A stretch of DNA of 56,699 nucleotides, counting the filler, from Catajapyx aquilonaris (Eukaryota), in the NCBI GenBank assembly GCA_000934665.2. It is 2 parts of 2 records of this genome, joined end to end, with 100 filler letters (N's around TTAATTAATTAA, not from the genome) between each part and the next. Parts side by side here need not be neighbours in the genome. Positions count along the whole stretch, not along the records: positions 1 to 28,305 come from JYFJ02004935.1; 1 more part is not named here. One strand, given 5' to 3'. Every line of letters begins with the position of its first letter. The stretch's first letter is position 1. Position numbers and translations under genes: made by a program. Shown piece after piece: positions 7,213 to 45,226 of this stretch. The notes below the pieces were generated by a model. That model ran no database searches and had not been told where the DNA came from. It was given only the letters and a program-made list of their open reading frames with translations.

Positions 7213-8302
7213 TCCCCATTCCCATTCCCATTCCCATTGTCCCTCTTCAATGAGGGTGGAATGCGGAAGTCAACGAGAAGTCATCACTCTATGATGCATT
7301 TCCTGCAGAGAGTAGTATAAGTATGGACCTGAAAACGATTATCAACGTTGTAGATGGTGGCTTCCTCCTTCACCGTGTGAAATGGAATGTTGGCTGCAAG
7401 TTTTCTTCTATTTGTGATCAGTATGTAGCTTATCTGCGTAAACATTATGGTGAAAACTGCACAGTGGTTTTTGACGGTTACGGTGATGTCAACAGTACAA
7501 AGCTAGCAGAACAGAGGCGAAGAGTCACCACGAAAACATCAGTTGATATTAATTTTGATGAGGACATGCATGTCACTGTTCAACAGGCACATTTTCTTGC
7601 GAATGGAAACAATAAGACCAGGCTTATTCAATAAATTACTAACACAGAAAATGGCCGCTAAAGGAGTTGAAACGAGAGTCGCTACAGGGGATGCTGATAC
7701 TACTATTGTGAGATGTGGGTTAGAGAAAGCAGCTTCTCATCCCACTGTTGCTATAATAGGGGAAGACGTAGCTACTTGTTGTTTTGACACCACCAGCAGA
7801 AAGTAACATTTATTTCATGAAGCCTATAGCAGGGGAAAAGTAGAAGCGAAATTATTTTCGACGAGAAAACTGCAGCAAGAACTTCCTTTTGCCAAAACCA
7901 TCCTTCTTCTCCGTGCCTTTAGTGGATGAAACACAACCTCATGTACGAGTATTTATAAAAGAAGCAAAGCAACAATGGTGACCTTGTTCAAAAAACAATT
8001 AGGCCAGATGAGAGACATTGCTGACATGTTTTATGACTCCTCATCGACACCAGATGCTGTCTCACAAGCGGTAGAGAAGATGTTCCTCGCTATGCAACGC
8101 CCATGCTAATGTTCATTCCTTGAATAACCATCGATATGCAGTATTTCTGAAATCATCAACCAAGGCCAAATCTGATCTCTCCTCACTTCCTCCAACCAAA
8201 GGCACCGCAGAGCAACACTCGTTTAGAGTTACTTACAGGTACAGCAGTGGCTTGATAACCACTTACCTCCTGACCAGTGGGGTGGGCCCGAGGAGAGGAT
8301 GG
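7213..8302 (+). mobile_element. Academ-like transposase remnant, XPG/PIN-like nuclease domain (pseudogenised)
   Basis: Motifs SLFNEGGMRK, VVDGGFLLHRVKW, CTVVFDGY, ATGDADTTIV, IIGED, LPPT..AEQHSFR spread over several frames. Confidence 0.75.
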
Positions 8303-13040: not shown

Positions 13041-16000
13041 CTAGAGTCCTAGACTATATGGCAATAACTTACTGCAGTTTGATGGGGCCTGGAGGTAATT
13101 CGGAAGGTGCATCAAACATAACCGCAGAACTTCGTTCATGCGCAGTGGCATTCCATCCTCATCAACAGGCCATGAAGTCACTTGGTGGGTATGACAGCGT
13201 ACTGGACATGCAGGATTCCCAGATATCTGTGAAATAAATGCAATATTGCAGAGAGATATCGAAAGATATCAAAGATCATCAATGACAGGAACCTTGCCTT
13301 ACCTGGATGCTAATTTTATGGCGGTTCCTTTCGGTAATGTTGAGAAAGAAATCTCTACACCAATCGACAATAGCACGAAGTGATAGTTCCTTCAATGCAT
13401 TTATCTTTGTAAAAAATGAATTTTGTGATGAGAAATAATTCCCGCCATTCAGTTCACTACTGGACTTACTCGTTCGTGGCGCAGCTCAGCATCGGTTAGG
13501 CCAGCCCGTATGTGAGGATCGACAATCGGGGGTGCACAATCGATCACCTGCTTCTTCATCTTATGAACAACATTGTCAGGGATACGAGCAAGTCGGGAGG
13601 TAGTTCCTACCAGATATCGATCTATATAATTGTCCAGGTACGGTGCGCTAAACATCGATGACTTGCTGGCCAATGTCAGGACCAGCCCACACACATTTCC
13701 ATTACACATTTTCCTAGCTTGAATCATGAAATCACAATGGCGTCCAGTATGGATGAGTTGAATGCACTCCAAGTAGTTTAGAAGGAGCTGAAAGCATTTC
13801 TTTACTTTAGGACTGGACAATATGAGCGCAACAAGAAGAAAGTGAGTGCCGCAGTTTTCTCACCGACACCATGCTCAGCATGGTGTACGACTCCGACGTA
13901 TAGGAGCCGATGTGGTAATAGTTTGTCACTACGGTCGTGGAGTCTTTCAAATTGAAGTTCGTAGCCTTCAACAGCAGGGATTCCTGTTTTGGAGCTCTGA
14001 TCAGCTCAGGCTGTATGTGGAAAATAGCGCATCACGTTATTGCATTTTGGATAACAACTTGCGGTTCTAGGATTTCGTCCCCGGCAAAACATCCCCGGAA
14101 TTTTCGTCCCCGCCGGGATGTTCGCAAGGACAATTGGAGAAACATGTCTTCTAGTGCAATTTAATATAATTAAGGGTAATAGCCATACAGAATATACCGT
14201 GCGTCGTCGCTATGCTGTCAGTGTAAAAATTATGCGAATGATAAAATCATTTAAAACGCTCTCAATATAAAAATAATGTCAGTGCAAGAGGGAGGGAAAA
14301 CAGCACATTATATAGGTGAGCAATTAAATTGCAAGATTACAATATTACGGGCAATGCCACGAGGATAATCCACTACATCGCGATTGTCAAAGTGTGTCAC
14401 TATCGACTATATCCCTTTTGCCCATGATTTGTAGTTCTTTCGAGGATGCACAGATGCAACTCCGGCAATTCTCTGCTATAGAGCATTGGATAGCATTGTT
14501 CTTGATTGATTATCCCGTCTGACTACGCTCTATTTTCGGATATTTTCCTTGGAGACATACCCGACGAGGACGTTATTATTTTGTCGGGGACGTAAGTTGT
14601 CGGGGACGAATTATTATTTTCCTGTAACATGCCTCTTAAACTAATCACAAGGCTTCAATACCCACTGCAATAAACACACACTTAACCTTGTTCTTCAATT
14701 TAATTCCATTAATATATTGCTGCGATTATCCATTCTTCTGCATTCCATTCTATTTTACCGACATGACTTTCCTAGTCCCTGTGCTTCCAATGACTTTGTA
14801 AATTTTTTAAATAGTGTATTCTATACGTGAGATATACTTAATGACCCTGCATTAAATTTCATTCTTTGACTATTATTATGAATTTCAATATTGTAATGTA
14901 GAATAATGATGTGCAAATTATTATTTGTACATTACTTGATACGTTGCCTCATTTCAATTTGGGTTTCTCCTGCTGGCGACGCGACGCCTTGTTGGTATTT
15001 TGTTTCCGATATTATTAAAAACATCGATTAACTTTCGGTCCGTATTTTTTTTTTCTTCTTGAATGTGGGTTGCACCAATTAAGGTATTTGATAACTTAGG
15101 ACGGACAAATTATTATTACACTAGAGGTATTCACTTTTCGCGACATTAACATAATATTGTTACAAGGAATTAAAATAATAAATTACTTATAGGTTGTTTG
15201 CATGACTAAACATTTTTGATTGGGTCGCAAGGCCATTGCACTGACTGAGATCTCCTCTAAGAATACGTCACCTTTCCAGCTTTGATATGTTCTTAGCCAG
15301 GACTAGTTACTGTACACTTATTGAAAAATTCTCGCAAACACATGCGTCCAGGAAGTGGAATCTAGATATCTGGGGATTTCAGTGGCAGAAATTAAGCGTA
15401 TATTATACCAAATTCTATGGATAGTTGATTTGCTTGAATATAATACATAACATTGAATGTGGAACTGAATTGCATTAGATTGAAAAATGGCAAATTGGGT
15501 TGAATTCAATAGTATTCAATAGAATGGTTAGCAAGTTCTCAAGTCACTGAATTGAATTAAGTTAATTCATTTTGCAAGCAATTCTCTGAAAGGCATCAGA
15601 AAGTTGAATCCAGAAGCTAAATGTGGGCAATCAAAACATACCCCCATTGAATCTTCCTCGATCCGATTAGGGAAACGACGTTCCATCATTTTTCTCATAA
15701 GCTCACGTAGTCTGACATGTATAGTGCCTTCGAACTTGCATCTTATGACGAAGGTTTTGTGGACGATGCTGTTAAAGGCGCCCTTTGTTAATTTTTGAAG
15801 ACGTCTGCGTTTCTCCACAGGGTTCCAGCAGGTGCGTTTTAGTAAGGCTTGGAGAAAGCATCTAGGGATACATGGAAAGACTCTTGTCATATTGCCATAA
15901 GGAAAAAATGCACGATTTATTATTACCAGGACATGAGGTTTCATTCAATATCAAGCCACTGGATCTTATGTCTGTCCAAACTAAAATTTCTCTTTCAGTT

Positions 16001-19000
16001 TATAATTATTTTTATGCACAAAGCTAGATTTTAGGGTCCAGTAAAAATATTACATGCCAATATACTGTACGTATTAGGCTAAATGTAAGTAACCGTTCGT
16101 AACTTGAATGTCAATAATCCTTTAAACTTTAAACGTTGCGTACGAATGGCATTGGTTTCCTTGAAGTGTGTGGTCAATAAAGGTCTGAACTCATATCTGC
16201 TTTTAAGTTCGATGTTTTTTTTTGCGCTTGAGAGGGCAAAATACAATAATATATTGAATAGTGGCATGACTGTATCAACAGTTGGCAAGGGTGCCAAGAG
16301 GAGGGAGTGGGAATGGCTAGAGGGGAGAACCCACGTCACCACACATGGGGACTGTGATTGGTTGCTTGCAGAGTGTGCTTGCGCGTCCGATCTAGATCGA
16401 AGATGCAAGCACAAGATGTCAACAGGTGCCCTCTATGAAAGTTAACTACCCGCAGGCAGAAATTGCGTACGATTGCAAGCATTATTTTGTGACTTCCACA
16501 CGCAAAAGTCGGAGTTACAGGCAGATAATATTATGAGTTCAGACCAAAAGAGTGCACCCAAATTGCAAGCCTCCCTTCCTCCACCCTGCAGGGTATTTAA
16601 TGGTTGCATCCATTCAACCTAATATTGAGAGGTTATTAATATTAATATTAGATATGAAAGTAACTCTTTGAAGGTGAATATACTTAATAAAAAGCAAGTG
16701 AAACAAAAAAAAAACTTGTAGGTAGGCAGACACTTAAAATGACCTCCCTGTACAGGACGATTGTAGTAGCAAGCATGCATGTATCTCATAAATCAATATT
16801 CTGATATGACGGCTATTACTAGCAATTATCACAAAAACCTTCCATTCTGTAAAAAAAAAGGGTAGTAAGACCTCTATGGTGGATAGATATTAATTAAAAT
16901 TACATCGTTGCTAAGAAAAGAACTTTATTATTATAGAGAATACCGATATAAGATTTTTTCTGGCGTTGTACGAAGGAATTCGCTATAAACTGACAGGAAA
17001 AGGATCGTCCGTCACGCCGAGCTGGTGTCATGTTCAAACTGTGAAACCTTTATCATTCTGTAAGGGTTTTTGAGTTATGCTTCGTCAAAAAAGCGGAACA
17101 TTTCATTGTTGTTTTCGGTCGTTTGGTCTTACTATAGGGACTATGGTCCCTACAATATTTCATAACAGGTGTACCGGACGCTACCGGACGTATATTGGTC
17201 CAATAGTGGGATAGTGGTCTCAGTGGCTTTGTATAGTATGTTATTATTATTGCCTACCATTCATTGCGTGAAGTTGTTTAGCATTTGACCTGAAACACCA
17301 TCAGTTTCTAAAGGTTTGCTTAAAAGTCGCGAATCAGCTCACCTACTAAGAGCAGTAGGCTGCATGCAGCTCCTCTCGTAGATCTTTAAAAGCATGTCTT
17401 GTCCCATCTTAAATTCAGTGTCCCTGATGATGTCCGGAAAAGCTATCATGTGACCAGAAATTGTTGCCACCATCACCTACAATGGAGACACCACAGAATT
17501 ATTTAAATCGTTCAAGGTACCTCTGATCATAACTCACCGGAAGGCTCATGGAATTTCCAGATATAGTGATGCTAAGTACATGCTCAGTGTTTCGCATAGT
17601 CCATTTCATTCCAGCATGGCTTGCAGAATAAAGATCCGGAGTAACCCTTTGTCGCAGGAGAAGCGTATAAAGATCCAGAGCGACAACAAAATCCACTCCG
17701 ATATCTTTGTTAGCACATGTTATGACAAATTCGCACTTTCCTCGCTGAATGTCCTGCACATAATTCCCTTTGTCATATACCTCCAAAATCTCTGTACTCA
17801 GGTACTTGTTCTCGTGTGGAGGGGGGTGAAATTCAGGGAAGGGCTGCACCTCAGTTAAAGTCAAAAGCAGTAGTGGAGAGACATCTGCAACAAACAAGAC
17901 AATAATTATGAACAAACACTAAAACCTGTAAAATGTGACCCTTACGTGTGAAGCTATAGTCAAGTTTAGTCCAGTATTCGGTGATGATGCGACGAGCATT
18001 AGCATATACAGGGGATAATGACATGATGTTTGCTTTGAGAGGGGCCATTCCCTTCAGCAGGAATTTGAGAATGCTCTGCGAAATTTAAAGGCTCACTGAT
18101 AACAAATTTTACTGTCACACAGACAGGCTCTAGTCAGGTAGTTCGGAATAAATCACTCACAATTGGATGAAACTCTACATACAAGTCATGATCCAAAAGC
18201 GCCTCTGGAGGATAGTAATGCATCGCGTTCGATCTGTCCACCAACATGTGCATTGGGGGAGGCTCTTCATCATCCAACTGAAACTTCAGCATGGCCCCAA
18301 TTTGGAAGCCTTTGAATATCTCTTCCTTGACTCCGTCTCTAGCTATCATACCAAGGTAGGAGAATAGTGCCAATAAAATCTCGTTCTTTTTGGTAAATCC
18401 TAATTTGGTCAAGTATATCGAGACGGTCAAGACCGAGTATGTAAGAGTGGACTCGGAGATCCTGCAGTCTATGTCGTATGCCAAAAATCTGTGCCAAGTC
18501 ACAATTATTTTTTTTTAAAGACTCTACCATCATAAAATACTTTATAATTATTTTCATTTACCTGTCCCGAACGTAAGCAAGAAGGCTTCCTTGACCTTTG
18601 TGATTCAGGAAATTTAATATGTATGCTAACGGTTTGCACTTGAAATACCCATAGTGTGAGGGCAGGCACCAACTGACACGCATCTGCAAAATGCCAAGTG
18701 GACCATTATGGAATGCATGTTTACGCGCCAAGAAGCATATACGTATGTATAGGGTGAAAGACTGACCTCGTAAATGTCGAAGGGTGAAGCGACCCGGTAC
18801 ATCTTGCAAAAGATGTTGTCGTCACAAGGACGGGAGATTTTGACATAGATGGCTGGATGTAATACGTTCGGACTATATCTTTCCATGGTGGAGAAGGCTC
18901 TGCAGACAATGAGCTCCAACTCGTCCATGTTTTGAGGTCCTGCCACAGCCAGGGACATCCGACTGCCCACGTAATACTGGCACATAAAAGCCATCAGCGC

Positions 19001-21441
19001 CCTCCGCATATTCTCTCTCAGTGCGGGACAGCTATGCTTCCCGAGGCTGAACATGCTCATAGGGTGGGTTGGGTCGGGCAGAACTCTCAACAACCTTTTA
19101 AACCGTCCTTCTCTTCCGGAATTATTCCTGAATTGCTCTAAGCAATGTGAGAGAAACTCGTGATTAGGATCAAAGACACTCTTCGCAGACGTTTTCCTGA
19201 TTTGTACACACAAGATTAGCCTACCTGCGCAGGAATCAGTAGGCTAATCTTGTGAATTCCAGCTCACACTGGGGTTGTGCACACTCTGCTAGAACCATCT
19301 CATTTTATGCTCTGTTCTTGATTCAATCAGAAAATTGCGGTGACTGTCAACAATGTCAGCAATGAAACTATAACGACTGCAGGCTTGTGACTTCTGTGCA
19401 ATTATCTGGTTGAATTCAATACAGTATACATACTAATGACGAGTTCTTATCATGACTCAACCATTTCATGCAATGCATAGGTTACATTTCAAGTAGGCCT
19501 ACTTATAGTGTAGTTACAAACTGTCCTCTCAGGCCACCTCAGACCGGTTGTACTTGTATGAATACACATTAGGGGTCACTAAGAGTTTTGCTACTGTTTA
19601 GAGTTTAGACTGACAAGTGCTCATGCAATTGGCCCTAAAACTGCAATGTATTGTTCCGTAGGAGAGGGTGAGGCAAAGCAGAGTTGTTAAAAAATTATTC
19701 GGCATTAGGCTTGGCTATCTCTTTCTTCAAACAGATCCCTTCCGCCCAGAGGAAGAAGAAGGTACCATATAGTTTTTTGCGGGAATAGGGTTTTTGTGAC
19801 TATAACATGGCTTTTTTTTAAATCAGTCATTAATGCAAAACCATGCATCGTGACCAGACTATTGGGTATATGACCAGGTAATTTTAATATAAAACAGTGC
19901 AACATGATAATAAGGACATCAGTGATTTTTTTAGAGACTTTACCTGTTACAGTGTGGGGCTGGTTGAACCAACAATGGGGTTTGGGGTAAGTCAGACCAT
20001 GATCCGCGAAAAGGTGACAATGTCTCTGGCTTATAATCCCATGTCCATTTAACTTATATCCCACCGATAGAGAGAAGAAAGGAAAATAAGGAAAAAGGGG
20101 ATCCAGATTGTAGCACATTAAATCTGCACATTTCGGATTTAAAAAAATGAATATGCGGCGTCATTCTCCTCCTGAGAGTTTCTAGTTATCCCATAAAATA
20201 ATTCACCTTACTTCATAGGATACTTAATGCACCCTACGTCATGCACAACCTGTTGAATCACACTCACAGTCAGACCTAATAAAAATGTGATCTTATAAAT
20301 GTAGTAAATACTTTGAAGATTGCACTGCTAATGGAAAAATGACAAAGGGCGTATTAGCTTCATGAAAATGAAAACGAGCAATCTGCTCAAAGAATGGAAA
20401 TATTTATGGAAAACATTCAAATGCTAAAAAATATTCTGCCTGCCTCTTTTTGCCCCCCNNNNCCCCCCCGGTGTAGATTACCCCGAATGTGTAATTGATC
20501 CTAACTGACGGCTGATGACCCTCCGTCTGCTAGATTTGCCTTCAAGCCAGAATATCTGACTTACAGGATAAAACACTTCATGCACCATACAATCATAATA
20601 TTCGCATAATCTTACATACCTTCCAAGAGAGCTAACTTTCTTTGAAATGCATTCAGGTCGAACCTTGGCCTTACGAAGGCGTCCGAAAAGCGGTCCAAAG
20701 CCTCTGGCAGATGCTTGGCGTCAACTGTGAAATAATATGTGACGAGTTCGTGTTCAGTCATGGACCACATCTTCCCATTATGCTCCTAAACAGAGAAATA
20801 AAAGTTTGGAGTGAAAACCATACAGGAGGGGTGCATGTTGTCGTGAAAAGGTGTCCTGACCCGAACAAATTTGTCCATATCATCTGGCTCGGGATATTGA
20901 GCGCTTCCCATGAACACGGTGTGCTCCACAAAACGGGCCATTCCAAGCCATTCCTCCGGGTCGTGTATGCTTCCTGCACGAAAACTCGCCGAGACTGCAA
21001 CCTAGTGGTGGACAAGTGCAAGTTGGAGTAGTAAATAAAGAGCCTCCTAAATGTACAAACTGGTAATGCATTTTAATCACCTGCTTCCAATTAACTTTTT
21101 TTTGCAGGGACACGGCTCCTCCTCTGTGCATAACGAGGTTCCTATACATGTGATAACCACAATAAGACATTTAGGATAATGCGGAACGTGAGACACGAAT
21201 CTCAAGGGAACAAGACTGACCTATACTCGCTATTGTCACGGGATGGCTTGCATGGTGGGGGATATTTCCCAGGGCTGCTTCCGACGAAAAAATTTCGTGC
21301 CATGTGTAAAATGTGTTGACACTCCTCTCCAAGCTGGTTTCCGAAGCAACACCAACAATACCCGACTCCTCCATTGTTTTTCTTGACGATTTTAGCACAA
21401 AACCAGACAAGTGACGATCGCTTGTTTACACCATTGCACAT
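13041..21441 (-). CDS. Insulysin/nardilysin-like M16A peptidase homologue, predicted catalytically inactive; 15 exons: 21441-21221, 21141-21081, 21001-20861, 20785-20620, 19137-18767, 18683-18562, 18488-18161, 18075-17946, 17884-17538, 17476-17343, 15861-15642, 14010-13864, 13787-13470, 13404-13303, 13226-13041 (~997 aa)
   Basis: All introns GT-AG and phase-compatible; total 2994 nt without internal stops. Colinear M16A motifs: KPSRDNSEYR, GSIHDPEEWLGMARFVEHTVFMGSAQYP, YYFTVDAKHLPEALDRF, HPMSMFSLG, YYVGSRMSLAV, KPLAYILNFLNHKGQGSLL, HPPPHENKY, TNYYHIG, HKISIQISG, terminal LLPY. Start codon and last exon are less certain. Confidence 0.85.
14062..14631. mobile_element. Non-autonomous DNA transposon with subterminal repeats (intronic)
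   Basis: TTTCGTCCCCG repeats at the left end and inverted CGGGGACG(AA) repeats at the right end; short imperfect TIR. Confidence 0.55.
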
Positions 21442-21517
21442 AGGCAGTATCTTCCTGTGATGCCTTTAGCAGACAGGTTGGGGCACTCACCCCCGCCCGT
21501 GGATCCGGTCGCTTCTC

Positions 21518-22094
21518 ACAAGGGAAGGTCACAGGGTGATAATGACGGATCTTGATGAAATTTAACATGCTAATACAGGACAATATATGATACCCAAAAA
21601 TGAAATATTTCGTGCGGAGGCACGAATTTTTATGTGCAAAAGTTATGACGTCTTAAAGTACCAAAAATAATACATTTTCATTCATAATGGGATTACATTA
21701 GCGACCACACATAAGACCACATTGAAGTGTGTAATCAGTTTCTACACTTTGTCTCATCGGAAAAAGTCCTACATAACGGCTCTGTATCTCTTACAGTTTA
21801 GGCCTTGATACCTGTCCACAGACGGACGGACGGACAGAGCCGTTCTGTATGACTTTTTTCCGACAAGAAAAAGTGTAGAAACTGATTACACACTTCAATG
21901 TCATTATATGGGGTCGCTAATGTAATCCCATTATGAATGAAAATGTATTATTTTTGGAATTTAAGACGTCATAACTTTTGCAAATATGGGCCTCCGCACG
22001 AAATATTTCATTTTTTGGGTATCATATATTGTCCTGTATTAGCATGTTAAATTTCATCAAGATCCGTTATTATCACCCCGTGACTTTCCCTTGT
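21518..22094. mobile_element. ~577-bp foldback with ~255-bp arms, DINE-1/Helentron-associated-like sequence
   Basis: ACAAGGGAAGGTCAC...AAAAAGTCCTACA is mirrored by TGTATGACTTTTT...GTGACTTTCCCTTGT; the spacer carries a GACGGACGGACGGACAGA microsatellite. Confidence 0.8.
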
Positions 22095-22516
22095 CAGTAT
22101 ACCTTTAAATAATAATATTATGTTGAATCTAATAGTGCTTTAATTAATGTCTATGCTACATGCCTCGTAAGGAGGTCAAGTACTACCCGGACTTTTCAAA
22201 TGATAATTATCAGCATGAGATGATGCAATACTGTATGGTCAGTTGATCACACATCTTAAAGTCACTGCATGCGCCACTGCACTGTACAATGCATCATTGA
22301 CATCAGAACCGAACTACAGCTCTACCCTTATTATTCCTGGATTTTTTTGATAATCTTTTAATATTGTTCTCTTACTTTTAAGAATGCAGAGAATCAGAAT
22401 GGGTTGTAATATTAGGCTTACTCTGATTTAAAAGTTGTGGCCTAAGAGCAAACCATATTATTTTGTTCAAATGTCTATGCAGGTCTATACCTCGTTTCTC
22501 TACACTTAGACAGAAC

Positions 22517-22890
22517 TTGCAGATGATACTTTATTTGCTATATTTAAAGTTTCTACACAGTCTAATATCATGGTTTTCAGTTGCAATATGCATCTGATTT
22601 TGAAATCATGCTAATCAATTTGGAGATCGCGAGACAAGTTGGTGATAGGTTATATAATTTTGGGGAAGGTAAATTGGTGAGGTCATACTTAATTTTTAAA
22701 TGGGCACATTAGCGTAACTCATGTGACCTAGTTTGATGAATAATAGAATATTGACATTGGACGTAATAATACAGTAATACGTATTATTTATAAACACACC
22801 TCCCTCTGCTTTTGATCTGCAGAAACCTGAAAACCATGATATTAGACTGTGTAGAAACTTTAAGTATAGCAAATAAAGTATCATCTGCAA
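22517..22890. repeat. ~63-bp inverted repeat of a LINE reverse-transcriptase fragment
   Basis: 22517-22580 is the near reverse complement of 22828-22890; translates (I)FADDTLFAI, a YADD-type RT motif. Confidence 0.55.
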
Positions 22891-26400: not shown

Positions 26401-28299
26401 ATGAAAAGCACTAGCTTACTTGTTGAACTATGAAGATTTTTATGGAGCCTCAGAACAAAGAAATTTGCACACCCGCCATATTGGAAATAAACAGTGTTAA
26501 CATGAACGTATGTGACAATTTTCTAATATCTGTTCAAAAATTTAAAATACACAATCTCATCTTTTAGAAAAGATCATGATATCATAGAAATTATTTATTT
26601 TAAAATCTGACCCTGATGTATACTTTTGCATGGAATTAGCCTCCTAGAAATAAGATGCATTGAGTTGGACGACCATTAAGGTGCCATGTCTTAGACCACC
26701 TTGGGCCTACCCTTGGGCTTGACCATGAAGAGACTTTTGGGGGACCTTGCAGATATGTGGAAATGGTGGATTGTATTTCTTAATGTTTCTTGTGGGCCCT
26801 GGTATGAGTCAATTTCATTGGCCCTGGCAACTTCTTCGAAGGCAGTCGCATGCACTTCATCTTTGTCTGGTGGTGCTGCAGACTCTCCCGTGGGGAGGAA
26901 GTTAAATGTAGCCTTGATTCATGGTTAATCAAGGTTACAACCTAACTTCCTTCCCATCGTAAGATATTATGCACATTGGTTGGCTTCCCTGTATGTCCAC
27001 CACCATAAATTAATCTAAGTCCACCGCTTTGATATCTATAGCTCCATCCCTTTCTTCAGCCGGGAGCCAATCTCTGGCAAATCAGACATTGTCTCAGGTT
27101 CAAATGGCTGTGCATGGCCTTTCTTGATCAGCATGTCTACCAAACTCACGTCTCTCATGTCACACAACTTGATCAAGGTTTTTCTCCCTCTCTCTGAAAA
27201 TGCCATGTTGATTAACATTGCTGCATGACATGATAGATCAAACCACAGCAATTTCTTCAATTGCAACATTCTACATTCATTAATATTAGTTATTCACATC
27301 AATTAATATTAATGGTGCATAATGGGAATAGGTTTTCCTAGTCGAAACCATAGGTTCAAAAATGCCACAAAGCAGTTCATTAGGCAAAGAATATATCTAA
27401 GTAAATGTCCGCACTCACATGACTTTTCTCAAGAAACAGTGACAAGGAAATGGATAAGTTATGCAAAAAGCACATTTAAAATTATGACAGAGTGAAACTT
27501 AATTACATCAATTGAACATATCATATTATCATCATGGTAGTATCTTTTCAACAAATAAAATTGACTTTAATACTACCGGTATTCAAGAAAAATATTTTCC
27601 TTTATTACAGGAGGGATCAGAAAAGAAAGAAAAAAAAAACCTTTTTTGTTATTGAAGCGAAAAAAATGAATGCACATTCAAGTCTATCTTGAGCAGATGC
27701 AGATGGAAGGATCACCACTTTGGCATTCTTTTTCTATTTCTTGTAACATCAACAGTCTTAGAAATTTGCACGGATAGCTGTCTGGTTGGGTGTAAACTAG
27801 GTTACTCACTTCATGGTTTGAGGGGGTCATGTTATCTTAATTGTACAGTATTAATGACAGTTAAATGTTATTCCAAAGAAAAATGATTCCATCCTACAGG
27901 AATAAGGCCCTGCTGCAAATTGCATTAAGGTCATTTGGGCCAGAAAACATTACCTTATGGCAATGTACAGCTGCCAAATGGCTCATACTGCTTTGTGTAA
28001 ATTAGCCACTGCTTTCACATATCAGTTTTGTGGCATGCAAATTCATGCACACCATGAATCTAAGCTCATACTCACAATTCCAAGATGAGTTACCCGAAGA
28101 CCAGGCTCACTAATAACCCTCTGCACTGAATTCTTGGTTTCCTTTTCCCAGCCTTTCTCCTCGTATACAGGCAGCATGCCTCCAAGGCTGCAATGAGTAT
28201 AGCCAATGGAGGTAGCTCCTGACACTCAGCAGGCAACTTAACCACATCTTCAAGAGGTACTGGAGTGCTGTAGCCATATTCCAGCAGAAATGATGTACT
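23407..28299 (-). pseudogene. Degenerate Tudor-domain gene (best exons ~28299-28076 and ~27193-27036; further disrupted fragments down to ~23400); 5' end lost in the gap
   Basis: FLLEYGYSTPVPLEDVVKLPAECQELPPLAI / HCSLGGMLP...GW is an extended-Tudor signature but needs a frameshift at ~28196. The next exon LIKLCDMRDVSLVDMLIKKGHA matches the SN-like end. Stops and frameshifts follow downstream. Confidence 0.6.
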
Positions 28300-28305
28300 C
28301 TAGGT

Positions 28306-28405
28306 NNNNNNNNNNNNNNNNNNNNNNNNNNNNNNNNNNNNNNNNNNNNTTAATTAATTAANNNNNNNNNNNNNNNNNNNNNNNNNNNNNNNNNNNNNNN
28401 NNNNN
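28306..28405. other. Artificial assembly spacer
   Basis: Exactly 44 N + TTAATTAATTAA (stops in all six frames) + 44 N = 100 nt. Confidence 0.95.
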
Positions 28406-32100: not shown

Positions 32101-32766
32101 TTAGCTGATCATGTCTCCATTCTTCCTGAGCATCTCCAGGCGAATCTCATGTTCCCTCGCCTTGAGCCTGAGAGCCGCGATGCTTGAGGTCCTTCTGTCG
32201 AACTCGACTGTGGAGATGGGCGGCCCCTGGGTGCTGCCACTGCTGCTTGGGGGCGATACGCTTCCGGTGGTTGGCGGTGGAGGAAGATGGCCGAAGAGGG
32301 CTGCCTGGTACTCCGAGGTGGCCACGGCGGCTGCGGCTGCTGCGGCCGCATCTAACTTGGGTCGATGGGCGGACAGGTTGGCCAGAAGGCTTTGGAATGA
32401 TGCTGCGGGCGGGTAGGGCAGCCCCATCATGTGGGCGGCCGCGGGTGGGAGCAGGGGCGCCCGGTAGTGGTGGCCCAAGGGCGGAGGGAGGTAGTTGGCC
32501 GGGAAGAGAGCGGCCGAGGGCGGGAGGTACGCCGGCGGAAGGCGAGGCGCTGCGGCAGCTGCCGCGGCCAGAAACCCACCATCGAACGCCTTCCTCGGGA
32601 AGGACAGGGGCGAAAAGGGGCCGACCATGGGCGAGCTGTTGGACCCTCCCGAGCTGGGGCTCAGTGGGCTCATGGTCAGGCTGGGGCTGTACGGGCTGTA
32701 CGGATGGGCCTGAGGACCCACTTTCTCCTGCTTGCGCCACTTGGCCCTCCGGTTTTGGAACCACAC
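32101..32766 (-). CDS. al: aristaless last coding exon (homeodomain helix 3, polyalanine tracts, OAR domain)
   Basis: TTTCAG|VWFQNRRAKWRKQEKVGPQAHPYSPY...SFQSLLANL...RRTSSIAALRLKAREHEIRLEMLRKNG, matching insect Aristaless motifs. Confidence 0.96.
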   Translation of the reverse strand: MWFQNRRAKWRKQEKVGPQAHPYSPYSPSLTMSPLSPSSGGSNSSPMVGPFSPLSFPRKAFDGGFLAAAAAAAPRLPPAYLPPSAALFPANYLPPPLGHHYRAPLLPPAAAHMMGLPYPPAASFQSLLANLSAHRPKLDAAAAAAAAVATSEYQAALFGHLPPPPTTGSVSPPSSSGSTQGPPISTVEFDRRTSSIAALRLKAREHEIRLEMLRKNGDMIS

Positions 32767-36320: not shown

Positions 36321-37600
36321 ATTAATTAACAAACACGAAAACAATAGATGCAGTAAATAGCTAATTCTAATACTATTGGTGAAATAAATAATACATATGA
36401 AATACGAAATAAATAATACCTTGAACGCAAATAATAAATAAATAAATAAATAAATAAATAGCTACATAAAACTAAATAAATATTTCAACCCAATTTTGGT
36501 ATGTTGTCTCACACATTTAATAGATGGGGTTGTGGATAATTTGTAAAAAAAAAATAACGCCAGATTGCCGAATCAGATAGGTTTAGACTTTGGAGGGCTT
36601 CCAACACTAGAGAAATGGGCATCTTTCGTGCCCAAACCTTTTTAGTCAAAAAACTGGACCTTTAACCTACAGGTTGGGCACTCTGGAGGACGAACCAACG
36701 TCTGGCAGCAGAAGCAATAACACAAAAAAAAAGAAGAAAGGGGGCTAGCAATTTATCCTTTTACAAAGCTGCTATTTTTCAACGTTTGCTTTCGATTTCT
36801 CCACCTGTACTGTTTGGAACCCTAGTTCGCCCCTGGAATCTCCCAACCCCATTTGATTTACCCCCTCCTGGGTCGGTTGCTAAGGGTAAGAAAAAAAAAA
36901 TACAGACAGCAAACCCCCCTTCGGCTTAATTACGCAGGGGGTATATAAAAGTGACGGTCATGGCCAAGCGCAGAATTACTTATTGATTTTCCTCGCCCTA
37001 ACGTTTAGGATAAATCTGATAAAGTGTAACCTGTCAAGTCTCCAACCTATAGCTAATAATCCGGGATTGTTATTCAGCCAACAATGATCAGTGCAAATTC
37101 AGTCGTTAACCTCCCTACACTTTATAGGCACGTAGTAATTACCAATTTTCTAATGACGACAGCTGCGGTCGACACCACATAAATACATCACGGTCGTGTA
37201 CCAATTTACCTGACTAGTTCATGCACGATCCCTCCCCAGAGGGCAGAATGATAGGGGGAAAAAAAAAACTAGGGAGGAATAGCAGAGTAATTCGATAATT
37301 TCCCTCCTCCCCTTGCGCGTAATTTATTTAATTAAAGTCAATTAGGGTAATGTCCCGGTGTTTCCTCGAATAAATCTATGGAGGATGAGACGGTTGGTGG
37401 TAGCAAAATTGCTGCACGGAAGCGCCATGTTTGGGCTTCTTCGGACCGTTAATGGCGCAAAAATGGCCGTGACAAAACTATTCACTTTTTCGTCTATCCT
37501 ATTATGAACAATTCTACTAATACAGACTATACAGTGCCGCACAACCACGTACAAAGGACTAAAAATTAGCTGCTACTTTGCTGTAATATGCTTAGACCAT

Positions 37601-37923
37601 ATTCTAAGGTAATTTATAAGGTAATTTATAAGGTAAATTCTAAGGTAAATTCTAAGGTAAATTCTAAGGTAAATTCTAAGGTAAATTCTAAGGTAAATTC
37701 TAAGGTACTAATTTATAAGGTAAATTCTAAGGTACTAATTTATAAGGTAAATTCTAAGGTACTAATTTATAAGGTAAATTCTAAGGTACTAATTTATAAG
37801 GTAAATTCTAAGGTACTAATTTATAAGGTAAATTCTAAGGTACTAATTTATAAGGTAAATTCTAATGTACTAATTTATAAGGTAAATTCTAAGGTAATTT
37901 ATAAGGTAATATTCTAAGGTAAT
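37601..37923. repeat. Tandem repeat, 12-bp and 27-bp units
   Basis: (TAAGGTAAATTC)n followed by (TAAGGTACTAATTTATAAGGTAAATTC)n. Confidence 0.95.
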
Positions 37924-42422: not shown

Positions 42423-44691
42423 CTGCAACGACAAAAGACAGTCATGAATACCGGTCACGCTTAATGTGTGTAATGAATTCGATTGAATTCGGTCCCCGTC
42501 ATTCGGACAGATAGACAGGTCCTGCATGTGTATGATACAGAATGACAAAGGCCGAACTCGTATGACGGGTCGTGACCATACCGGTGTGAAAAGGTGTCCG
42601 AAATAGGACCGAATCGGTCGTGTCCACACATTAGGCCTAATGTACCCTCTTGAGAGAGGCGCAACAAGTGCTCATTAGGTGGCTTCTAGGGGGTTCGCAT
42701 GACCTACACCGACATTGTTGCTGTGACAAGCACTTTTAGGGAGTTTCAATAGGTCCAATTAGGCGGCGCGATATGTCAGTCCCCCTCCATATACAATGAC
42801 ACACTGTGCATCTGTTTCCTCTTGTCATGTTGCGCCATTAATTGAGGATAATTCCATGTAATTGTGTAGAGACAGGCAGCCGGAAATCGCTATTACACGC
42901 CTAGGTCCGTCTATAAAAAAAATATCCGGGTAACTAGGTGTGTTTCCGCGGAATTCTGGGTGGTGAAAGAGAAAAGGGCAATCCGGTTACGCTCCGATTG
43001 CTGGGGCTACCATTACCGAAACAAAGTCGATGACTGTTGCTGTTACCACGTTTCACTGCTGCAAATAGGCGCTACTGGAGCTGGCTCAATAAGAGATGGC
43101 GCTACTAGCGCTACTAATGCGCCTTGATCAAAGATGGCGCCAGTGACGCTGGCTCAATAAGAGATGGCACCACCAGAACAAACCAAATTGGGCGGAGTCA
43201 TCAATTGCCACGAATGCTCACAAGTGAAGCCACTTAGATGACTTGAATGACGCCCGCATCAATCTGAATATAAAGATAGTGTGGTTGTACCGCTAATGTG
43301 TTCTTAATGCTGCAAAGTAGATCAATGCCGGATTTGATCCAATGAACATTTACCTCTCTACTCTTTTTACTTATCTGCAAAAGTTACTGCGACGTAACAC
43401 TTTATTCCACTGATAAAGACGCTCGACTTGTTCCTGAACCTCGATGTCTTCTACTTTTTTTTTAAAAACAATTCACTGAACCGAGTGGTGCAAGAGTTGT
43501 CCATTATACGGTATCGGAGTGGCCATGTTGTAATCTTCTTATAGGAACGGATTTCATCAAGGGTGACAGGTATGCCACATGTTGAAGTGTGACCATACGA
43601 CAAACATTTTCAGACTATGGCTCCAAGAAGTGTCTGGAGTGTTTTGGTTATGCCCCCTCTTCTTTTCTCTACCACCACCGCGGGCTCCCTTTGGCTCCAT
43701 CCAACCTTCAGAAATGGTGGGGTGTTGGAAGGTGGGCAGGGGTAGGAAGGTGGGGAGAGTAATTGCCAGGCCAAGGGGAAATTACGGGGTAGTGGGGCCT
43801 GTCGGGAGTCCCTGCAATTTAGCGTCATTACGTATTGTCCACTTTAATGAAGTTTCCGTCGGGGCCCGTCATTAGCCCCGCTGCATTAAATTAATAAAGT
43901 GAGAAAATGTGTTGGGGAGCTGCCGGTCAGGGGGCTCATTCGGATGGCCGGCCTCGCCTTCATTCCTGCATGCATTTCATAATTAGATTAACCTGTGAAA
44001 TTTTCAGGGGGTTTGAAAAATGCTACCGATGACTTGGCACTTGGGTCTGGAATGTGGATGGGGGGTAGCCAGTTCATTACTAGGGCGCTCCGATCGCACA
44101 GGATGATTAGATCGTGATTAGCATGATGCACTGTGCTGTGATCCGTTCCATCATACGAGTCCCCTCAGGCGGTCATGTTTACAAAGTTTATTTATTTACA
44201 TTGGGATGACGGGAGTGTTTTTTGATTCATGAAGATTGCCATGGGTAGTACGGTAGTTGATGTCAACAAACTGCACTGAATTCAAATCGTTCGACACGGG
44301 CGGGCGGACATGTTGGCAACGTCGTAGAAAGGTGTGTTGATATCCCTGCCACACAAACCGATCATTGCATAAAATATTTTAGAAAATAAATCAGACACTA
44401 TAAATCACATGGGCGTCCTTCGCACGTCGCATCATTCTCAGCAAATAATTGCAGTAATTACACATGCACAAATGAGTTCATGTCATTCTCATGTAAGATT
44501 GCATCGCCAACAACAAAATCTCGTCACACTTCCTGCAAGTGTATTCTCATGTTCATACCGCAAAAATCCCCCCCAGAAGTTGGCCAGAACCAGCCCAACA
44601 CGCGACTTGGCTACCATGTGAAGACTTGCAGATGTTTGACATCACGCAAACCGGTTGGAAATAAGGTGTCGCAAATTTTTGCATAACTCAC

Positions 44692-44978
44692 CTTGTGAAC
44701 ACATCTGGATAGTGTGTCCTAGCAAATGCCTTTTCCAGTTCCTCAAGTTGGTAGCTAGTGAAGGTAGTCCTGTACCTTCTTTGCTTCCTCTTAGGTGCGA
44801 ATTCGTCCATCTCTCCCTCACTATTGGTTTCAGATACACCAACCCCATCTCCTCCAGCTTCCGAACTCTTCTTGTCTTCCTGGTCCTGGTCACCACCTAG
44901 TCGTTCTTCAGGTCCACTTGAAGATGGCGCTGGAGACGCTCTGGATTTGTCCTCTTCCGCCGGCGAGTCCACACTTAT
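44692..44978 (-). CDS. al: aristaless exon with acidic N-terminal region and homeodomain helices 1-2
   Basis: CTAAT branch + CACAG acceptor; ISVDSPAEE...[46 protein letters not shown] donor. Confidence 0.96.
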
Positions 44979-45226
44979 CTGTGGTCATTAGTGGGTTAAT
45001 AACAAGGTCAGGAGTGTCGTCTGGCACAAAAAGATGGGACTTTGCGTGTCATAATTTCGGAAGGAAGAGCCGGAAGTAGGCGGGGTTCATGCAGGTGGCG
45101 CTGGGCTCAAACTGGAAATTTGGTGCAATAAATTTGCGGGAAAGCCAATTATTTTGTGGTTAGGCCTCTAGGGGGCTTCCGGCGGCCATGCATTATTTTG
45201 AAGATACAGGGTGGGTTGAAACGTAC

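Follow-up and report, generated by a model that had tools for sequence, protein, structure and literature searches.

A diverged insulysin/nardilysin-type gene of Catajapyx aquilonaris as a candidate M16A pseudopeptidase

Can an animal gene of the M16A peptidase family be kept by selection after its product has lost catalysis? The question is raised by a gene on the minus strand, at 13041-21441, of a 56,699-nt window of Catajapyx aquilonaris DNA (assembly GCA_000934665.2). The window is the whole stretch analysed here, two joined records with filler between them, of which positions 1 to 28,305 come from JYFJ02004935.1. An earlier note, made from the sequence alone, had described the gene as an intact insulysin/nardilysin-like gene that had lost its zinc-binding residues and was kept for a non-catalytic role. 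The non-proteolytic roles of insulysin (IDE) and nardilysin, as chaperone, shedding enhancer and transcriptional co-regulator, are hard to separate from catalysis, and a kept animal M16A protein without catalysis would reveal the surfaces and motions that these roles need. The significance is tempered since arthropod genomes commonly contain enzyme duplicates that are dead and evolve fast, and the gene may be limited to one lineage.

By its sequence, the gene belongs to the M16A fold family, with a single chain of about 1000 amino acids (aa) and four M16 domains. We compared it with 156 full-length M16A proteins, referred to here as the references. These were pre-selected for HxxEH, and the count for H108 is thus circular while the other counts are not. 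Canonical residues are numbered as in human IDE, and domain 1 of the model corresponds to IDE + 9. The M16A profile of the references aligns residues 62-878 as one domain (E=3.3e-113), and the single-domain scores of domains 1-4 are 172, 117, 45 and 16 bits compared to 0 or below for 50 shuffles each. A Pfam scan of 13 of the 15 exons and the tail, with exon 2 left out, placed PF00675 above the cut-off for exons 3 and 4 and gave weaker M16_C or M16_M matches for exons 5, 7 and 9. The profile search that the earlier note had proposed places the gene in the M16A (pitrilysin/IDE/nardilysin) family. Human IDE is among the top Protein Data Bank (PDB) matches for exons 3, 4, 5 and 7, and exon 5 leads to M16_C clusters in the ESM Atlas, where exon 13 gave nothing usable. 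An AlphaFold model of exon 13 alone was dismissed at a confidence (pLDDT) of 44.

The active site of IDE, as excerpted from PMC12731061, consists of the zinc ligands H108, H112 and E189, the general base E111, and an Arg/Tyr pair that completes it. The HxxEH motif of active M16 peptidases reads RFVEH in the spliced model, as in the earlier note, and the codon for its Arg is CGT. Two of the three zinc ligands are changed, H108R (R117) and E189Q (Q198), and single mutants of IDE at H108 or E189 are described as inactive. The model retains the second His, H121 (H112 in IDE), and the general base, E120 (E111). The third ligand is Glu in all 156 references. The third ligand follows the first-His position by 81 residues in every one of the 156 references and equally in the model, which puts the neighbouring E197 out of register. 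Our alignment agrees with the earlier note that both Glu of the IDE segment REVNAVDSEH are replaced in the model's RKLALLEEQF (K191 for E182, Q198 for E189) and that WSMT stands in place of NAFT (N139W). Moreover, the domain-4 Arg/Tyr pair, present in 156 of 156 references, is lost through R824H (H809) and Y831F (F816). Both columns have a high posterior in the hidden Markov model (HMM) alignment, though the identity across domain 4 is only about 14%. None of these six substitutions (H108R, E189Q, E182K, N139W, R824H and Y831F) is found in any reference, and the canonical residue is found in 155-156 of 156. The changes at the site require at least 10 nucleotide changes, three of them for N139W alone. 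The claim that the zinc-binding residues are lost thus stands for H108 and E189 and fails for the equivalent of H112, which is retained along with that of E111. We infer that the protein would bind no catalytic zinc and cleave no peptides, and it is very probably not a working peptidase.

We found that 173 of 192 columns of the hydrophobic core are kept (90%), whereas 200 neutral simulations of equal identity average 57% and never exceed 66%. Of the near-invariant columns, 39 of 68 (57%) are kept, compared to 20-21% in the neutral simulations. The reading frame was approached by a survival simulation that includes substitutions, splice-site hits and indels. At 1% divergence, 2-23% of the simulated unselected copies were still intact, and at 2% only 0.05-4% were; the intact frame across 14 introns allows only about 1-2% neutral divergence. 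Since the changes at the active site exceed the mutations allowed by this window, catalysis would have been lost while the gene was still constrained. The earlier observation that a frame of about 3 kb stays open despite strong divergence is borne out, as the intact frame and the kept core exceed neutral expectation. In all likelihood the gene was kept by selection until very recently, and its intact structure and fold constraint probably fit a pseudoenzyme kept by selection.

The substrate-binding surface is altered as well. In IDE the exosite Glu E341 anchors the N-termini of substrates (PMC4355285, in part). This residue is replaced by Lys in the model (E341K, K349), where 148 of the 156 references have Glu and none has Lys. 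The isoelectric point (pI) of the whole protein is 8.9 compared to 5.3-6.4 in six animal IDEs, a value above 8 being shared by nine of the 156 references, and that of the N-terminal half is 8.7 compared to 4.9-5.7 in the same six. Cys makes up 3.1% of the residues, above every one of the 156 references (maximum 1.9%). The N-terminus, if the start is placed correctly, is mildly presequence-like, with five K/R and no D/E within the first 30 aa. The exon 2 region has no acidic insertion, as the model shares with 152 of the 156 references a spacing of 30 residues between the flanking anchors, and a search for an acidic run in the first 130 aa found none, with at most four D/E per 20-aa window. Among the roles that the earlier note had offered, that of a selected pseudopeptidase gains from the further loss of the Arg/Tyr pair and the exosite Glu with core and frame kept. 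That of a peptide cage is weakened by the change of the exosite Glu to Lys, by the Trp that opens the NAFT strand and by the shift of the N-terminal half from acidic to basic.

We favor, on balance, a non-catalytic protein under selection that serves as a scaffold, a chaperone or a structural component, over a peptide cage in the style of IDE. An M16A peptidase gene, either IDE or nardilysin, would have been duplicated in an arthropod-type genome, and the duplicate, freed from catalysis, would have evolved very fast under selection that preserved the four-domain clamshell fold. Since the peptide-gripping points and the acidic lining of the chamber appear to be gone, the protein would act through its outer surfaces or a remodeled chamber, via protein contacts. 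The scaffold, chaperone and germline roles may be drawn by analogy with other proteins, and fly Nrd1 and inactive IDE are precedents for non-catalytic roles that could have been inherited from the parent protein. A tissue-restricted function, most likely in the male germ line or sperm mitochondria, is a tentative suggestion on the same analogies. We regard as unlikely a more specific version, in which the gene would be the first of a small lineage-specific family of full-length animal M16A proteins that put the clamshell to a new use. These would serve clients of the germ line or of mitochondria as a non-catalytic scaffold or a chamber with a basic lining, or else would carry a rewired metal site between domains 1 and 4, of H121 with H809, H813 and C814, that senses or locks the closed state.

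Several points weigh against a selected non-catalytic protein of this kind. The kept His and general base leave part of the site in place, and word-based, phmmer and profile searches all failed to find an orthologue. The retention of the core reflects all the divergence from the references, a large part of which is ancient, and the aligner may inflate the figure. Active-site columns are kept at two of six compared to 37 of 62 other invariant columns (p=0.39), and a wider active-site set at three of 10 compared to 36 of 58 (p=0.085). Since the loss at the active site is not significantly above that at other invariant columns, it fits release from constraint and is not shown to be a targeted removal. 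Finally, nothing in the data points directly to the germ line or mitochondria.

We considered whether the protein might still be a metallo-enzyme with a residual or rewired site, formed by H121 and E120 with E197 or with H809, H813 and C814. Such a site would draw on the two kept residues and on the loop of domain 4 that meets the active site on closure. In this loop H809, H813 and C814 stand where R is found in all 156 references, Q in 154 and L in 148. There is a precedent in bovine core I, whose YFVEH motif shows low activity after detergent treatment in the excerpt of PMC12731061. We nevertheless judge this very unlikely given that two of the three ligands have been replaced along with both transition-state residues, that E197 lies one helix position out of register and that the His/Cys cluster may be chance in a protein that is Cys-rich overall. 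An origin of the substitutions in assembly or gene-model artefacts is hardly credible and is largely refuted already. It could appeal to the predicted status of the model, the four Ns in intron 4 and the single sample behind the supporting contigs, which is possibly the source of the assembly. Yet the longest contigs, from runs X1, X3 and X4, carry CGT with no other letters at 20933-20935, the codon at which CAT or CAC in raw reads would have refuted the earlier note, and none elsewhere over the exons, for which no variant is listed; coming from that one sample, they rule out an assembly slip and are not independent evidence. The changes span five exons and the alternative in-frame junctions restore no ligand.

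A catalytically dead protein could also be a peptide trap that closes round peptides and sequesters them uncut, in the manner of the inactive IDE mutant E111Q, which holds amyloid-beta as a 'dead-end chaperone' in the excerpt of PMC9776231. All four domains are present in the model, and several features make such a trap rather improbable: a Lys, seen in 0 of 156 references, at the exosite, Trp at the start of the NAFT strand, the lost Arg/Tyr pair and the basic N-terminal half. A long-functional divergent paralogue that is recently dead or near-neutral, perhaps after a further duplication or a transposon insertion at its 5' end, is also unlikely, though a shade less so. The features consistent with it are a high-copy inverted-repeat element 74 bp upstream of the first ATG, an out-of-frame open reading frame (ORF) of 127 aa from a strong start context at 21374, a second copy hinted at by read contigs, and the Cys content, as expected of relaxed constraint. 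On the other hand, the intact frame limits neutral divergence to about 1-2%, and even a gene that is dead now would previously have encoded a selected non-catalytic protein.

A selected non-catalytic M16A protein can be placed among known systems. IDE (M16A; human structures PDB 2G47 and 2WK3; arthropod IDEs P0158 of Planococcus, P0149 of Eriocheir and P0161 of Orchesella) has the same four-domain architecture, length and domain-1 spacing as the model, and no acidic insertion. Identity to IDE is only 29-33% for domain 1 and falls to 14-16% for domain 4, and the model is no closer to IDEs than to bacterial M16A proteins. Unlike IDE, it lacks H108, E189, E182, N139, E341, R824 and Y831 and is basic where animal IDEs are acidic. 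Nardilysin, whose N-terminal acidic domain is named in the excerpt of PMC5665917 and whose non-proteolytic roles are described in those of PMC5665917 and PMC6339878, is an M16A protein like the model, but it is an active enzyme and the model has no acidic domain. Fly Nrd1 is described in the same part of PMC6339878 as a mitochondrial chaperone of Ogdh.

Pseudopeptidases of M16 are already known, namely MPP-alpha, the bc1 core proteins and INS proteins of Cryptosporidium parvum. According to the excerpt of PMC8092296, HXXEH is found in 10 of 22 C. parvum INS proteins and missing in 12 of 22. This is an expanded and divergent M16 family with motif-less members like the model, but its proteins are those of an apicomplexan parasite, and their motif loss is presumably independent in origin. 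The M16B pseudo-subunits MPP-alpha and the bc1 core proteins have a dead or modified motif (PMC12731061, PMC11266112, both in part), which reads YFVEH in bovine core I compared to RFVEH in the model. These proteins are two-domain subunits of about 500 aa that are paired with a partner, whereas the model is a single four-domain chain of about 1000 aa in which the normally active half is dead too. In Drosophila, the S-LAPs (family M17) have lost catalytic residues, are proposed to be structural and are the top sperm proteins by mass (PMC3469443, in part), and the M16 gene CG10588 is testis-expressed and present in sperm (excerpts of PMC3469443 and PMC8623413). Both are duplicated metallopeptidase genes tied to sperm. 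The family of the S-LAPs differs from that of the model, and the parallel with CG10588 is a tentative one of family membership. A literature search, which excluded MEROPS, supplements and most subscription journals, turned up no full-length M16A protein of an animal described as a pseudopeptidase. The available part of a 2024 review of pseudometallopeptidases represents M16 by MPP-alpha only and contains neither 'nardilysin' nor 'insulin-degrading' (PMC11266112).

We asked where the closest relatives of the gene lie. In word-based homologue searches, neither the 145 candidates for exon 5 nor the two for exon 3 included a match at E<=0.01, which is weak evidence. With phmmer, exon 5 matched 33 of 1.84 billion representative sequences, none better than E=1e-7; these are generic M16A proteins of bacteria, protists and others together with one repeat protein (P0001). 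A profile of two proteins and exons 3-7 gave 4608 matches, and among the best 120 of these none is closer than about 23-30% identity. Overall, the model is about equally distant (22-30% identity) from bacterial, protist, fungal and animal M16A proteins. Two quick trees place it outside the animal IDE clade on an end branch of 6.4-10 changes per site, and on these quick trees, with their extremely long branch, the approximately unbiased (AU) test does not reject a single clade with six animal IDEs (p=0.68). The parent gene may be either IDE or nardilysin. No nardilysin was recognized among the 185 proteins fetched for comparison, and several stretches of domains 2 and 4 may look more nardilysin-like than IDE-like. 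The FMGS motif was dismissed as a nardilysin marker, being also found in IDE-like references.

There are hints in the read contigs of another, diverged copy of the gene at a separate place in the genome, corresponding to about 13204-13893 and 17684-18682. In each run one additional contig, equal in depth to the locus, matches pieces 41-48 nt long at three places (one that ends at 13251, one at 13423-13470 and one that starts at 13853). Where the contigs of the locus are interrupted, their short overlaps point to segments shared exactly, of about 36 nt in exon 9, 50 nt in exon 7 and 31 nt in exon 6. Because the matched pieces include intron sequence, the contigs suggest a fairly young duplicate and not exon-specific conservation. 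The contigs of run X5 cover repeats only.

The gene model itself (Table 1) is a prediction from the DNA. Its 15 exons are phase-compatible and splice to a coding sequence (CDS) of 2994 nt for 997 aa with a single terminal stop, so that the claim of an open frame of about 1000 aa free of stops and frameshifts was recovered. All 14 introns are GT-AG, and 11 of them are 61-85 nt long, the other three being about 1.5 kb. The start codon is uncertain because the first 60 or so residues have no homology support; the candidates are the ATG at 21441 and an in-frame ATG at 21303. The last 57 residues are likewise without profile support. Alternative in-frame splice choices at two junctions, exon 4/5 and exon 12/13, do not give Glu at the third-ligand position. 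An extra exon at about 15302-15187 was dismissed, being phase-incompatible and not required by homology. The GC content at third codon positions is 0.53 in the CDS compared to an intron GC of 0.38, and the observed/expected CpG ratio is uninformative (0.75 in the CDS, 0.70 in introns and 0.72 in the window).

Table 1. Exons of the predicted M16A gene and its degenerate zinc motif, in window positions.
Feature	Position	Strand	Residues	Remarks
Exon 1	21221..21441	-	1-73	M16A homology limited to aa ~62-74
Exon 2	21081..21141	-	74-94	
Exon 3	20861..21001	-	95-141	Peptidase_M16 PF00675 E=1e-7
Exon 4	20620..20785	-	142-196	PF00675 E=1e-8; WSMT at 20767-20756; K191 at 20638-20636
Exon 5	18767..19137	-	197-320	Q198, codon CAA, at 19135-19133
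Exon 6	18562..18683	-	321-360	Exosite position K349 at 18599-18597
Exon 7	18161..18488	-	361-470	Domain 2; matches human IDE 372-461, E=2e-4
Exon 8	17946..18075	-	471-513	
Exon 9	17538..17884	-	514-629	Peptidase_M16_M PF16187 E=9e-6, under curated cut-off as lone exon
Exon 10	17343..17476	-	630-673	
Exon 11	15642..15861	-	674-747	
Exon 12	13864..14010	-	748-796	
Exon 13	13470..13787	-	797-902	Arg/Tyr loop: H809 at 13751-13749, F816 at 13730-13728
Exon 14	13303..13404	-	903-936	Positioned by MAFFT, beyond HMM-aligned 62-878
Exon 15	13041..13226	-	937-997	Stop TAG 13043-13041; tail without profile match
Degenerate zinc motif RFVEH	20921..20935	-		R117 (IDE H108; codon CGT 20935-20933), E120 (E111), H121 (H112)

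The inverted-repeat element upstream of the gene, at 21515-22097, resembles a miniature inverted-repeat transposable element (MITE), has long terminal inverted repeats and reaches a read depth of about 24,000 in its bin compared to 24-31 for the gene. A second inverted-repeat element lies at 22517-22890. The ORF that starts at the minus-strand ATG 21374 runs for 127 codons across the first three introns into exon 4. This ORF could be fortuitous, or it could lower translation from the main frame. Inserts of repeat origin at about 16850-17200 and 14080-14540, marked by raised depth and an opposite-strand joint, form part of the long introns 10 and 11.

Farther out, a Tudor-domain-like fragment lies on the minus strand at 28299-28088, beside the filler gap (28306-28405), with a Pfam TUDOR match under the cut-off (E=0.018) and an apparent frameshift near 28198. 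It possibly extends to 27197-27036 and 25216-25022 on the same strand, and may be the 3' end of a Tudor gene or a pseudogene upstream of the M16 gene. Across the gap from the M16 gene, homeodomain pieces and a C-terminal OAR motif mark an aristaless/Arx-type homeobox gene on the minus strand, at 32101-32766 and within 44691-44984. This neighbour and the sizes of the introns suggest an arthropod origin. ORF pieces on the plus strand at 7254-7634 and 8075-8230 look by eye like a decayed transposon-associated protein and have no Pfam match, and a short-unit tandem repeat at 37570-37917 gives rise to a repetitive ORF of 115 aa.

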